Shown: positions 956 through 34,679 of the stretch, in pieces
Layout of the letters: each line of letters starts with the position of its first letter
How positions within the stretch are numbered: the first letter of the stretch is position 1
Source of the DNA: Lingula anatina
Taxonomy: Eukaryota; Animalia; Brachiopoda
NCBI GenBank assembly: GCA_051362555.1
Contig: CM120646.1
Location: 22,196,001-22,260,000 of the forward strand
Direction of reading: 5' to 3'
DNA: 64,000 bases
Notes under the pieces: generated by a model
Told to the model about the DNA's origin: nothing
Seen by the model: only the letters and a program-made list of their open reading frames with translations
The model's database searches: none
Translations under genes and position numbers: made by a program

Positions 956-3900
956 ATGGCGAAGATCTACAAATATATTGTAGAGAAACTGGGGTTTTTA
1001 TGGATATTTAACATTGCTAGCGTAACAGGTAAAAATAAAGAAAATGTAAAATTGTTTCTAAAAATGTTACTCACCTGTGAGAATGCATGTATTTCATCTG
1101 AGAGCAATCAAAACTAACATTTCATTAACGTTTTTCCTTTCAAATGATAATTATAATATACTGATATGTGCATCAGCAAAAAGACATTGCAATTAAATGG
1201 CGTTTGGTATAGTAGACCTAATAATTCAATTTGTAGATATGTTGTAATTCATTACACGAATAAAAAATATTTTTAGTATAAACTCAGACAAAGTATTAGA
1301 GGAGGAAGCGCTCATTTTGTTTATTTCACATTTTTCATTGTGTATTGTGGTACAGACAATCATTAGATCGATGATGCTATACTGGTAAAGTCGCTCCCCT
1401 TGCTTTCAATTAACAAATACATGTGTACAGATTGTAAAAGCTAAAAACACGTTTTGCTACACTGGATTAGACGAAACAGGAATAGTCCTGTGTCCGTAGT
1501 ATAAGTTTAAGGGAGAAGAAACGTCTGAATGTCTTCGGATACAGATGACTGGTTATAAGCAGTACAACTTTTATCTTAATGTATTGACACGTGTATGTAA
1601 GGCAAAACTCCCTGGGGAAAATAAATCGTCCTATGTTTTCGTACCTAGAATAAATTTATTAATTCAATAGTAAATACGTGTACCCTGTATTATAACCGTA
1701 TTCTTTTCCAGCTTCCTTGCCTAGTTGTGATGACGCCATTAGTGTTACTCTACCTTCGTCTTACTCTGTACGCACGGGACAGAGTGTCACACTGCAGTGT
1801 ACATTTACTCCTCATGCAGCCCAGTACCAAGTGAAGTGGTCGTGGAATTCAGAGGAGTATGAACTAGTTGTAGGCAACTTAACTGGTTCACCTGCAGTAC
1901 GCCCCAATGGTGTTCTACAGCCAGCGTGGAATGGAAGGTTGTCATTCCAGTCTCCAGCCTCACTTGTTATCAGTGGTGTCACTACAGCAGATACTGGGAC
2001 CTACACATGTGGATTGAAGATAATAGTAACATACCCATCAACATGTGAAACAGCTAACAGTCGGTATTTTAACACAGCTACAAGCCTCCAAGTTACAGGT
2101 AATGTTAATCTGGTAGGTGCGGGCCTTGCAGCACATATTTGATGAAGCATTTGAATTTAATGTTGCTCTCAAGACCCCTGTAAGTGGAAAGACATCGTCA
2201 GGACCTCATTCCTAATCCGCCACTGATAGCCATGCATTTGCACGTTTAACTACTCCAAGTAAATAGATATTTTATGAAAATATACCTATTAGGCTTTGTC
2301 CATCCTAATAAATTGTTAATATTATATTATACAGCCTGAAACATCACAGATAATGGTTAGATATTTACTTCAAAATTTGAGAGGACAATGCTTACACATT
2401 GGGTTTTTAAGTAATATATATATATATATATATATATATATATATATATATATAATAAAACATTAAGAACCACCCATATTCACTTTATACTTGTATCATT
2501 TACAACTCACCTCTTGAAGTTCCAGTTGGGGGTGTTTCTGTAACCCGTTCACGTGCCACAGGACATGATGTAACCAAGGGAGACACTGCATATCTAAGCT
2601 GTACCACATCATCAGGATCGACACCCATAACATATACATGGCTCCTGAACAATACACCGTTACAGCAGACTGGCAGGGAGTTGACGGTCAGCAATATACA
2701 ACCAAACCAAACAGGACCGTACAGATGTAATGCCAGTAACCATGTATCTTGGCAACAGTCTGGCATGTTTACATTTAATGTATTATGTAAGTGTCACTGT
2801 GTTAAAGTATTATATTTTATGACATAAGAACCCTGCAAATCTAGTCTGCTTACATATTCCTCGTCAAGCTAATTTGTTATATTGATTATCTGAACCATTG
2901 AAAATTATTGAAGAAAAATATATGTAAAATTTACATTGTCCTGTTCATTCAATGAGCAGATTTAAAGTACTGATGTTAGATATACATATTACAGCTTTCA
3001 CTATAATGCCATTTTCATCAGTAATTTTATTCATATACATATTTTACAGTACTCACATGCAATAACAACAGCACATGTTTATTCCAGATCTTCCAACATC
3101 AGCATCATTATCTCTGGTTGGTAAAAGTACATCTGACCCTATCCAAGCAGGTGCCCAGGTTGTATTCCAGTGTACGACACCAGATGGTAACCCAGCACCA
3201 ATACTTCAGATATACAGAGGAAGTACTGCAGTATCTAATACAGGATCCTCACCACTGAGGTACACTAGAACCATACTGGACAGGGATAACCTGGCTATAT
3301 TTACTTGTAAAGCCACTGCGACTGGTGTTACTGGCGAAACAACCTCTACTGGGATAACTCTGACCAATGTGCAGTGTGAGTTTATATCTTATATTTCCGC
3401 TTATACACTTAAAATTGTGTTGTTTAAACATTTACTATATTAGTATTCTGCAGATTAGCCAGGGAACAATGGCATATTGTAATATTACCTAGACATTTTT
3501 TTGGATCAGAACAACACTGATGAATACATTGATAGTTACAGTCAACAATTAGTATCAACTTTTTCTCGTACTAAAATCAAGAAAATATTATTGGCGTACT
3601 GAATCCTATGGATCTCAAAATCCCATAATTATTTTATCTCAATCTAGTTCCTCCCTCTGCTATATCCCTGTCCCAGTCACCCAGTGGTGCAGTAAGATCA
3701 GGTTCCCAAGACATCACACTGACATGTAGAACATCGTCTGCCAGTAACCCTGCTGTCACTGTTGCCTGGCAACAGGTCAGGGGAGGGGCTACCACAATTA
3801 TTACAACAGCAGTTCAGACCACCACCAGTACTGACACTTCTAACCAAGGCATCAATGTGATCAGCACACTTACTTTTTCCAGACCTGGGAAAGAATACAA

Positions 3901-33100: not shown

Positions 33101-34679
33101 TGTATGCCATACAATTTTTAAAAGAATTATCCATGATAACGACATTCAAAGAACAGCATGTCATTTCATTTCTCTTGAATAATGGAATTCTATCCGAAAA
33201 TGTATTTAAATGGATTTCTATATAAACGGTTAAATAGTAATATAACTTTTCGATATGATTTTCCTTAGAAAGGGGACGAAGTAGCAGTTAAGAATATGGG
33301 GAACGATGCTGAAATATCTATGGATTTGGCCGTATTTGAAAGGGCAGTAAAACCGTCTTACTGTGAAGTAAAATTACCGAGGAAAGGAGACCGGTATGAT
33401 TGCTATTTTCCTATAACCTCCCGTGTTCGTTTTCATACAGTAATTATCTGCATTGTGTGAGTGGTTCGCTTATTTTCCTTTATTTACATTGAATAAAGAT
33501 GTTAAACGGACAAACAGGTTTTAGATAATCCTGAATCCCACAAAACCATATTGCATCATTGCCAAGTGCTCCTTATATAAAACGTATTGTGCAATGTCAA
33601 GGCAATATGTGTCAAACAAAACCCGTTATCGAACACAATGAGAACAATCTTGCTTCATCAAGGTGATTGTTTAACATGTTCATTTGCCACGGTGGGAGTT
33701 TTTTTAAACTTTTTAATATATTTCATTATCAGTTTATTCAAAGTTAGCGTCAACAAACTGGTGGCTTTGAATTCAACCTCACCAAGTGAACTGAAGATTG
33801 GTATGGTAAGTATTTAAAAAAAGGCATTTGCATTTGTAGTAACTGAAAGTACCAATACTTTTAAAGCATTATATGAGCCTGAAGTTGATACTATTTGTGG
33901 GGTTCTAAGTATTTTTTTAAAAGTTTATACCAAATTATTTATTACAATGATCGACAAACTGAAAAGTAATCATGGGTAGAGATGTCCAGAAACCCATATT
34001 TGTGAATTATAAACCCATTATAAAAATTACCATGCAGCGCTGATATTAAGATTTGGCACATTTTCCAATACATTGCAAAGAATGTCACATTTAAAATCTT
34101 ACTACTTCAGAGTGTTGTAGCCCTTCATCCACTGGTGTGGCGTTTTTTCGAAGGAAATATTCAGGGAAAGGTACGATATTAATGCGATATAATTGCTTGC
34201 CTAGGAATTCTTAAAGTTCCCGTGCAGGTACGGTTGATAGTTTTAAATGCGTCTCTTTGTAGAAATAATCGCTTTTTGTGTCTCTGACGTACATGAAGAC
34301 AAATGCCTGGCTGTGCATTAGTCCCTACGTGATGTGTATACACGTTAAAACAACGGCATGTAAAAACAGCTTTTTCATTATCATGAAACTGTTAACAACA
34401 CTGACATTTAATTATATTTTTTATACTTTAAAGGTTATAGTGATGAATTAAGTAACATGCTCTTGTGTCTGTGTTTTTCAGTATAGATCGCATCTTTCTT
34501 AGTTGGACCTAATTAGTGCTATACTAATGAAGTAGGGAAAGAAAAAAATACTTATTTTAAATTAAGTGCATGCTTTTTAGGTCGGAGAGGACAAGTACAG
34601 CATTCGGTTTAAGGGAGAAGAAGTTGAAGACCACATGGTGGACTTGAAATACATTCTGGATGTGGGATGTATCAACTGA
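30108..34679 (+). CDS. IgV-IgC-mucin stalk-TM receptor with a cytoplasmic SGF29-like tandem Tudor domain; locus E
   Basis: Exons 30108-30162 (signal), 30297-30671 (V, DTGNYSC), 31117-31404 (B7/CD80-type C domain, AYPVPDVHW), 31651-31833 (S/T/P stalk), 32288-32425 (TM), 32891-32916, 33269-33393, 33733-33805, 34111-34170, 34581-34679. Intron phases after the TM exon run 1-0-2-0-0 with no stop. An unspliced read-through would end at 32451 (VTEPFF*). Confidence 0.8.
32891..34679 (+). other. Five micro-exons encoding a tandem Tudor-like (SGF29 C-terminal type) domain
   Basis: Spliced translation: GLDVLHSLRKGDEVAVKNMGNDAEISMDLAVFERAVKPSYCEVKLPRKGDRLFKVSVNKLVALNSTSPSELKIGMSVVALHPLVWRFFEGNIQGKVGEDKYSIRFKGEEVEDHMVDLKYILDVGCIN*. 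Collinear motif similarity to SGF29 as recalled (GDKVAA, ILAEV, YEV, VIPL, VLALYP, FY, DDYSVLF, V..RYVV). Confidence 0.68.

Follow-up and report, generated by a model that had tools for sequence, protein, structure and literature searches.

Clusters of polymorphic immunoglobulin (Ig) receptors with tyrosine motifs in their tails have been described, in the portions of the literature drawn on here, from a cnidarian, a tunicate and snails (10.1101/2022.03.04.482883, PMC12065747, PMC7494358, PMC10875847), and Ig receptors bearing an ITIM (immunoreceptor tyrosine-based inhibitory motif) are as such already known in oyster (PMC11999971). Here we analyze a locus of the brachiopod Lingula anatina, contained in a 64,000-nucleotide stretch of contig CM120646.1 (hereafter, the window), in which four Ig receptor genes that begin with a V domain (A, C, D and E) and one relic (B) lie side by side. 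Our search of the literature, which left most subscription papers outside its reach, returned no account of the locus, and none of a comparable cluster from any brachiopod. What is distinctive here is that one scaffold holds a member with a catalytic kinase as well as one with an ITIM, and that the variability falls on the kinase member. To the following reading we assign a probability of roughly 55%: the genes belong to a Lingula family of single-pass Ig and fibronectin type III (FN3) receptors that gains and loses members, with A as a variable tip on a near-fixed kinase and D as part of a kinase-less branch with a predicted inhibitory tail, the likely role being the recognition of non-self.

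Gene A: kinase and ectodomain variation

Gene A has the features of a receptor tyrosine kinase (RTK): a signal peptide, a single transmembrane (TM) segment, a glycine loop, the catalytic lysine, and the motifs HRDLAARN and DFG, all in an open frame. The catalytic domain matches PF07714 at E 1.6e-92 (scored on the public copy of A, P0001, XP_013387863.1), which bears out the intact kinase read from the bare sequence in an earlier note (the original prediction) and, with it, the claim that the complex includes a kinase of its own. P0001 spans exons 4-20, exons 1-3 being missing, and one kinase exon of A is 100% identical to it. Residue differences between A and P0001 are unevenly distributed: there are 28 among 294 positions in exons 4-6 (Ig3-5), 3/110 in exon 7, none in the 283 residues of exons 8-10, and a single one in the 322 residues of the kinase (Fisher p 4e-9).

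The V exon of A was compared in four DNA runs (X1, X2, X3 and X7). The version present in X3 differs from the window at 47 of 395 bases (about 12%) over the V exon and its 3' flank, whereas background divergence of X3 is 27/4599 bases in 8 of 1746 pieces (a biased sample), or about 1.5% as estimated from word share. The 3' V contig of X3 runs into intron 2 of the window, and window-type V sequence reaches no more than depth 2 in that run. A third version, related to that of X3, is found in X7, and X1 has window-identical and variant pieces at equal depth (55.6 and 54.6); many base changes of the X3 version are common to X7 and to the second haplotype of X1. Because both haplotypes are common to X1 and X2, these two runs were counted as one. 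There are at least three versions of the V domain of A: those of the window, X3 and X7.

The amino-acid changes in the domain lean toward two loops, which hold 7 of 17 while making up 20 of its 115 residues (p 0.011, the loops having been picked post hoc). We take these to be the BC and FG loops from their sequence position and the topology of the V fold, the fold model being of low confidence (single-sequence prediction, pLDDT 43); the domain holds both cysteines and the tryptophan. Contigs matching the V exon number 58 each in X1 and X2 and 9 each in X3 and X7, and some of those in X1 carry foreign splice-site flanks. Such numbers hint that V exons related to that of A form a pool, the size of which may vary, although summed depth is not a measure of copy number.

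The best kinase matches to A in the PDB are FGFR and RET, besides one EGFR-named construct; presumably the domain also resembles Drosophila Cad96Ca. TAM receptors combine an ectodomain of two Ig and two FN3 domains with a TAM-type kinase. Gene A has seven Ig domains and a kinase of FGFR/RET type, and the public 'TYRO3' label does not fit this architecture. The nearest kinases, P0002-P0004, are all from Lingula (73-78% in exon 16), and the group looks like the product of ectodomain shuffling around one kinase subfamily. Two of the three have other ectodomains and one has none annotated; two share one scaffold.

Layout and kinship of the neighboring genes

Exon models were derived from splice sites and reading frame (Table 1). 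The original prediction described five loci that each start with a signal exon followed by a V exon, with one domain per exon and phase-1 introns. This holds for A, C, D and E, in which each extracellular domain occupies its own exon between phase-1 GT-AG introns, but not for B, with its weak and decayed V. Pfam V-set E-values are 6.5e-12 for A, 1.2e-7 for C, 2.5e-8 for E and 8.9e-5 for D (the last below the Pfam cut-off), and all 21 Ig or FN3 exons scanned (those of A, C and D and the V exon of E) are backed by Pfam. D lies on the minus strand, head-to-head with E, their start codons being 232 bases apart; so short a spacing could reflect a bidirectional promoter or overlapping upstream untranslated exons.

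Table 1. Features of the receptor cluster, in window coordinates.
Feature	Position	Strand	Description
Gene A	956..11651	+	signal, V, 6 Ig, 2 FN3, TM, juxtamembrane tyrosines, intact FGFR/RET-like tyrosine kinase; 20 exons, 1357 residues
Diverged distal block of A	1712..4664	+	V exon through Ig5 exon; compared in the V exon and exons 4-6
Family module of A	5937..7261	+	Ig7 without first cysteine, then FN3 and FN3-like; homologues are D exons 8-10 and domain 7 of P0058
Juxtamembrane exon of A	8032..8112	+	three tyrosines, one in ITIM consensus (STYTVL)
Relic B	13786..14574	+	signal-like exon 13786-13834; decayed V-like exon 14241-14574
Gene C	15215..19167	+	signal, V, C2, TM, tail with YEVP and YTDL; 334 residues; tail exons predicted only
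High-copy repeat open reading frame in last intron of C	17707..18735	+	X3 depth 500-1800; no Pfam match
Dead last exon of D	21625..21777	-	homologue of the motif-bearing exon of P0125; stops at the tyrosine of the first motif and downstream
Gene D	23397..29875	-	signal, V, 6 Ig, 2 FN3, TM, 55-residue tail; 1017 residues; public copy P0005 (XP_013387861.1)
D-E start-codon gap	29876..30107		head-to-head arrangement; putative shared promoter
Gene E, whole	30108..34679	+	473 residues
Gene E, ectodomain and TM	30108..32425	+	signal, V, beta-rich second domain, Ser/Thr-rich stalk, TM
Gene E, predicted tail	32891..34679	+	exons 32891-32916, 33269-33393, 33733-33805, 34111-34170, 34581-34679; 125 residues

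Gene D has the layout of A without the kinase. A full-length relative of D with about 90% identity, P0125, lies on another public scaffold and ends in TVYADL, which resembles an ITSM (immunoreceptor tyrosine-based switch motif) with Leu for Val/Ile, and VEYGTI, which fits the ITIM consensus, 27 residues apart; for these motifs we followed a published consensus, in which the pair in PD-1 and BTLA is 25 residues apart (PMC8631942). The last two exons of D in the window match this tail at 92.5% and 80% (the latter at E 1e-17), and the stop of D at 23399-23397 corresponds to a tyrosine codon in P0125. There is no stop in the 1017 codons ahead of it, and two more follow, one of them at the tyrosine of the first motif. 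An X3 contig with a different base at 23397 also encodes a stop there, so the truncated form is not restricted to the window. The short or alternative basic tail previously ascribed to D results from reading its last exon out of frame; read as in P0125, it is a stopped ITSM-like/ITIM exon. The copy in the window would then be a truncated inhibitory-type receptor, with a working decoy and an early pseudogene alike possible, its ectodomain frame being intact. The tail of P0125 also supports an inhibitory-type member of the family, beyond what had been seen in the original prediction.

Differences between D and its public copy amount to 16 of 722 residues. Against P0125, change is concentrated in the V domain (21/116, against 71/780 in the other domains; p 0.005). 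A 3-base deletion at 29466 in X3 was considered as an allele of D and rejected, as it equals a one-residue gap in the V of P0125. The public model of D changes frame at exon 9, and we also discarded the idea that the public copy is a pseudogene, 5 of the 7 inferred exon-9 changes being synonymous in the true frame. Outside Lingula, word-limited searches returned only generic Ig/FN3 look-alikes of D (NCAM-, fasciclin-2- and nephrin-like clusters; titin, contactin, NCAM2 and SYG-2), and among the 120 matches listed in one homologue search, 116 came from outside Lingula, were multi-Ig proteins (Dscam for the most part) and were discounted as generic.

Gene C differs from P0058, a sixth member of the family, at 31 of 103 residues in the V domain and at 13 of 105 in C2, both compared with the first two domains of P0058 (p 0.002), and its head is a recent partial duplicate of the P0058 lineage, set on a different TM and tail. 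The two-tyrosine tail that had been claimed for C is present, in predicted exons, and is not an immunoreceptor tyrosine-based activation motif (ITAM). The public model, P0101, stops after exon 3, the tail being missing there and lying beyond a high-copy repeat whose reading frame we take, from its motifs, to be a putative fragment of a non-LTR retroelement. Because no splice joints were found in three RNA runs, the tails of both C and E are predicted only. These runs (X9, X12 and X15, of which 6, 6 and 25% were read) were compared with C, D and E and placed 192, 68 and 257 reads, respectively, mainly on repeats.

Two further observations concern the C2 exon of C, i.e., exon 3. Summed X3 depth over 16422-17082 is 146, as against 30-67 nearby, and this excess suggests additional copies resembling C or P0058. 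It is also the only exon with notable RNA reads, a few from X15 that may come from paralogues. Separately, the juxtamembrane exon of A and the last exon of C (19066-19167) both carry YExP and YTxL with their tyrosines 13 residues apart, and both are phase-0. The proposal that the tail of C is this exon of A minus the kinase was set aside as weak (111/5000 shuffles, and one of many comparisons) and is retained as a lead only.

The decay ascribed to B is evident: its V-like exon reaches the Pfam V-set only at E 0.056, does not match the signal exon in frame, and contains two stops. Because the public model of C splices the last 20 codons of B ahead of the signal exon of C, B may survive only as a leader of C.

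In gene E, the extra exon 33733-33805 is required for the frame, with which the five tail exons are open and phase-consistent. The Tudor identity given to this tail in the original prediction found no support from any tool, single exons (20-41 residues) giving no match in Pfam, the PDB, 1.84 billion representatives or the ESM Atlas. The second half of the tail appears to follow the strand pattern of Tudor domains. An internal repeat between the two halves was not significant (1895/5000 shuffles), and an alignment of four of the tail exons was uninformative. The attachment of this tail to E is predicted, and the Tudor-like module is an unconfirmed candidate. The second domain of E has no Pfam match, and its single-sequence fold, of low confidence (pLDDT 45), had no match at E 0.001 or better in a fold search; among 25 candidates for the V exon there was no longer homologue.

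The genes are connected by a membrane-proximal module common to A, D and P0058, an Ig domain without its first cysteine, after which A and D have two FN3 domains. Between A and D, identities are 27/86 for exon 8, 35/90 for exon 9 and 33/81 for exon 10 (31-41%; z 19-31), and in a tree of Ig domains (3 of 23 branches resolved) A8, D8 and domain 7 of P0058 form a clade with support 99/98. The distal domains gave no alignment in register, and the four tails (A, C, D and E) showed no significant mutual homology. Nor are the four V domains (A, C, D and E) closer to one another than to other Ig domains, only those of C and P0058 grouping in the tree. Because the V domains are only generically alike, tails have not been swapped on a shared head within the window, and the original picture of interchangeable outputs on a common V module is not supported there. 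Its suggestion of per-domain phylogenies yielded the C-P0058 grouping and the membrane-proximal clade, with most branches unresolved. Birth and death, by contrast, is supported by the relic B, the truncated D, the recent duplicate C, the paralogue of D elsewhere, the many V exons related to A, and the deeply diverged versions of the distal ectodomain of A. The picture that stands is that of an ancient family in which there are several kinds of output and turnover has in part been recent.

Consecutive accessions, XP_013387861-864 on a single 141-kb public scaffold, correspond to D, C, A and P0058. The last (a V and 6 Ig domains) is outside the window and probably lies upstream of A, judging from accession order. 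The flanks had been suggested as a place to look for more members: apart from P0058 on the public scaffold, an Ig profile run over 1606 six-frame segments detected none downstream, at 35-64 kb, and the best segment beyond its training set was B, at E 0.29. Public annotation is incomplete at this locus, A being without its V exon and C and D without their tails, and E was not found there.

Downstream, the cluster is bordered by a minus-strand kinesin-3-like gene (about 39000-52300) with motor and FHA-type exons recognized by eye; two of its exons were scanned and had no Pfam match. Two near-identical glycine-rich genes of secreted type (minus strand, 55639-57728 and 61578-63962; no Pfam match), which in our estimation resemble the ALK/LTK ectodomain, interleave with the plus-strand exons of a gene for an enoyl-CoA hydratase/isomerase (PF00378 at 58987-59268) and may lie within introns of that gene. 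Short high-copy repeats lie between C and D (18860-19035, 20420-20450 and 22200-22440), with X3 depth in the thousands and many loose ends in RNA.

Proposed function and rival explanations

Modeled on established RTK and ITIM biology, binding of a ligand by the distal V and Ig domains would cause A to dimerize, leading to trans-phosphorylation of activation-loop and juxtamembrane tyrosines and to the recruitment of SH2 proteins. An intact receptor of the D type would recruit a tandem-SH2 phosphatase through its two tyrosines 27 residues apart and thereby damp signaling, whereas the D of the window would bind ligand without signaling, or is becoming a pseudogene. C could act as a short docking receptor that offers tyrosines, and E is a neighboring member of this superfamily that the predicted A/D pathway does not include. 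The head variants of A would most likely have arisen by exchange among many related V and Ig exons, followed by long retention. Because change is fast at the V domain in A and in both paralogue pairs (C/P0058 and D/P0125), we lean slightly toward a ligand that is itself changing, most simply the surfaces of microbes or parasites.

Several observations weigh against recognition of non-self. In the V exon of A the ratio of nonsynonymous to synonymous polymorphism (pN/pS) is 0.58 for X3 and 0.63 for X7 (33 and 29 exonic sites, respectively; 40 of 73 variant rows); values below 1 imply that the V versions of A are old or converted, replacements not being in excess overall, and selection-free gene conversion yields the same picture. 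Part of the V divergence could derive from a paralogue, because the 5' V contig of X3 extends upstream into sequence unlike that of the window. C is identical to its public copy (0/233 residues differ), and the V of D differs from its public copy at only 1 of 120 positions. The V-exon diversity proposed as a check in the original prediction is thus high for A alone, with C and, at 16/722, D showing none of it and pN/pS remaining below 1. P0125, lying on another scaffold, could be either a paralogue of D or one of its deep alleles. A and D are without close distal domains and a common ligand is therefore not implied; no charged residue occurs in the four TM helices, and no full ITAM in any of the tails. 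Finally, in the three partially read RNA runs hardly any reads fell on D and E, and C, D and E yielded no splice joints.

If these genes were instead lineage-expanded receptors for adhesion, development or wound signaling, their ectodomains would be shuffled by duplication, conversion and decay under little selection, and they would have no role as a recognition unit. A pN/pS below 1 with raised synonymous divergence fits conversion from paralogues, for which many related V exons are at hand; the look-alikes of D are NCAM-, fasciclin-2- and nephrin-like, the kinase of A groups with FGFR and RET, and ITIM-consensus motifs occur in adhesion molecules too. Yet the divergence is limited to the distal domains of A and peaks at V in two paralogue pairs, and replacements within the V of A, of which there are at least three versions, favor the loops (with the post hoc caveat given above). 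We regard this explanation as unlikely, though deserving of serious weight. It is quite improbable that the cluster truly serves allorecognition or gamete recognition, with the head of A binding self alleles homophilically, by analogy with Hydractinia Alr1/Alr2. The arrangement of one domain per exon with V first, membrane-adjacent FN3, pseudogenes and tyrosine-motif tails does fit the Alr description (10.1101/2022.03.04.482883), and the variation of A is distal; however, high variability is confined to one of four genes, and the V domains are canonical and mutually unrelated. Moreover, Lingula is solitary and is not known to have a fusion response.

A more prosaic account holds that the hypervariability of A is an effect of assembly or mapping that joins the distal exons of a paralogue to the kinase of A, the loci being otherwise ordinary neighbors. 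That P0001 lacks the first three exons of A, that the V exon attracts many contigs whose depth sums are not copy numbers, and that the exon-9 frame shift of the public D model betrays trouble in assembly or annotation would all be expected under it. It is nevertheless highly improbable, given that variant contigs in three runs extend into the intron-2 flank of the window, that X1 carries both types at equal depth, and that the window type is nearly lacking from X3. We retain, as the likeliest, the reading of a gaining and losing receptor family engaged in non-self recognition. Were it true, A would be a receptor kinase with a ligand-binding end some tenfold more variable than the surrounding genome, next to a sibling family with ITIMs, and would give a specific entry point for studying how recognition diversity comes about in a solitary invertebrate.

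A bolder version, which strikes us as speculative and rather doubtful, would make the cluster a brachiopod system of paired receptors. In such a system the activating partner would be an RTK rather than an ITAM adaptor, its fixed kinase receiving exchangeable V/Ig heads from an exon pool of variable copy number; it would be opposed by ITIM receptors on the same scaffold, which stops at tyrosine codons could switch to decoys, and a neighboring Ig receptor would carry a cytoplasmic Tudor-like module, unreported for such receptors.

Comparison with described receptor systems

Among lophotrochozoans, Biomphalaria PTC2 (PMC7494358) and the LG16 clusters of Ig, FN3 and C-lectin genes (PMC10875847) are, as described in the text available, clusters of single-pass proteins with deep haplotypes and gene-content variation, to which the locus here can be likened in part. 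PTC2 has more synonymous than nonsynonymous divergence (PMC7494358), as does the V exon of A, and LG16 genes combine Ig and FN3 domains with segregating nonsense variants (PMC10875847), to which we liken this cluster. The distal block of A is diverged in a manner that would fit deep haplotypes, whereas C and D are not. PTC2 proteins, unlike those of Lingula, carry no recognized domains, and the majority of them vary strongly (PMC7494358). The word 'kinase' does not occur in the main text of PMC7494358, nor 'tyrosine' in that of PMC10875847, although the supplements may list such members. Both snail clusters have a mapped link to parasite resistance (PMC7494358, PMC10875847), whereas the Lingula cluster is known from sequence alone.

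The Hydractinia Alr cluster shares with this locus its clustered, V-first Ig superfamily genes, one domain per exon, a membrane-adjacent FN3-like fold, pseudogenes, and unrelated tails with ITIMs (10.1101/2022.03.04.482883). In Lingula this layout, with FN3 ahead of the TM, is found in A and D, while C and E are without FN3. Alr comprises 41 loci in 11.8 Mb, with 1-3 Ig domains, non-canonical V domains and many ITAMs (10.1101/2022.03.04.482883). In contrast, A and D have 7 Ig and 2 FN3 domains, their V domains are canonical, that of A having the Cys-Trp-Cys pin that Alr V domains lack, one of the Lingula members is catalytic, and there is no ITAM. The parts of the Alr description drawn on here contain no kinase member, although its supplement may list kinase or motif-bearing members (10.1101/2022.03.04.482883).

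In Botryllus, the fester and FcoR genes are V-first, with ITIM or YxxL tails, birth and death, and adjacent gene pairs, as here (PMC12065747). FcoR, however, has sushi and two C2 domains and is paired with fester genes (PMC12065747), whereas the pairing of D with E is positional only, and no sushi domain was found in any Lingula exon scanned with Pfam. Oyster CgIgIT2, likewise from a lophotrochozoan, is a receptor of several Ig domains that bears an inhibitory motif of the tyrosine-based kind; compared by description only, CgIgIT2 differs in having five Ig domains and no FN3, and no cluster with a kinase sibling is described for it in the text used (PMC11999971). RTKs of the FGFR/RET group have the same type of kinase as A, with the catalytic motifs intact, and differ in the ectodomain, which in A consists of V, 6 Ig and 2 FN3.

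Vertebrate paired receptors (the leukocyte receptor complex, Siglec and SIRP families) comprise activating and ITIM-bearing members, show copy-number variation and leave relics, and in these respects the Lingula cluster can be likened to them. Their paired members have near-identical ectodomains, and activation depends on a charged residue in the TM segment together with an adaptor that carries an ITAM. In Lingula, the ectodomains of A and D are 31-41% identical, in three proximal domains only, and neither charged TM residues nor ITAMs are present. The ITIM/ITSM pair of a vertebrate inhibitory member is found in P0125 and is dead in the D of the window. If the reading favored here is true, it opens the question of whether the pairing of a kinase with an ITIM receptor is older than pairing through ITAM adaptors.

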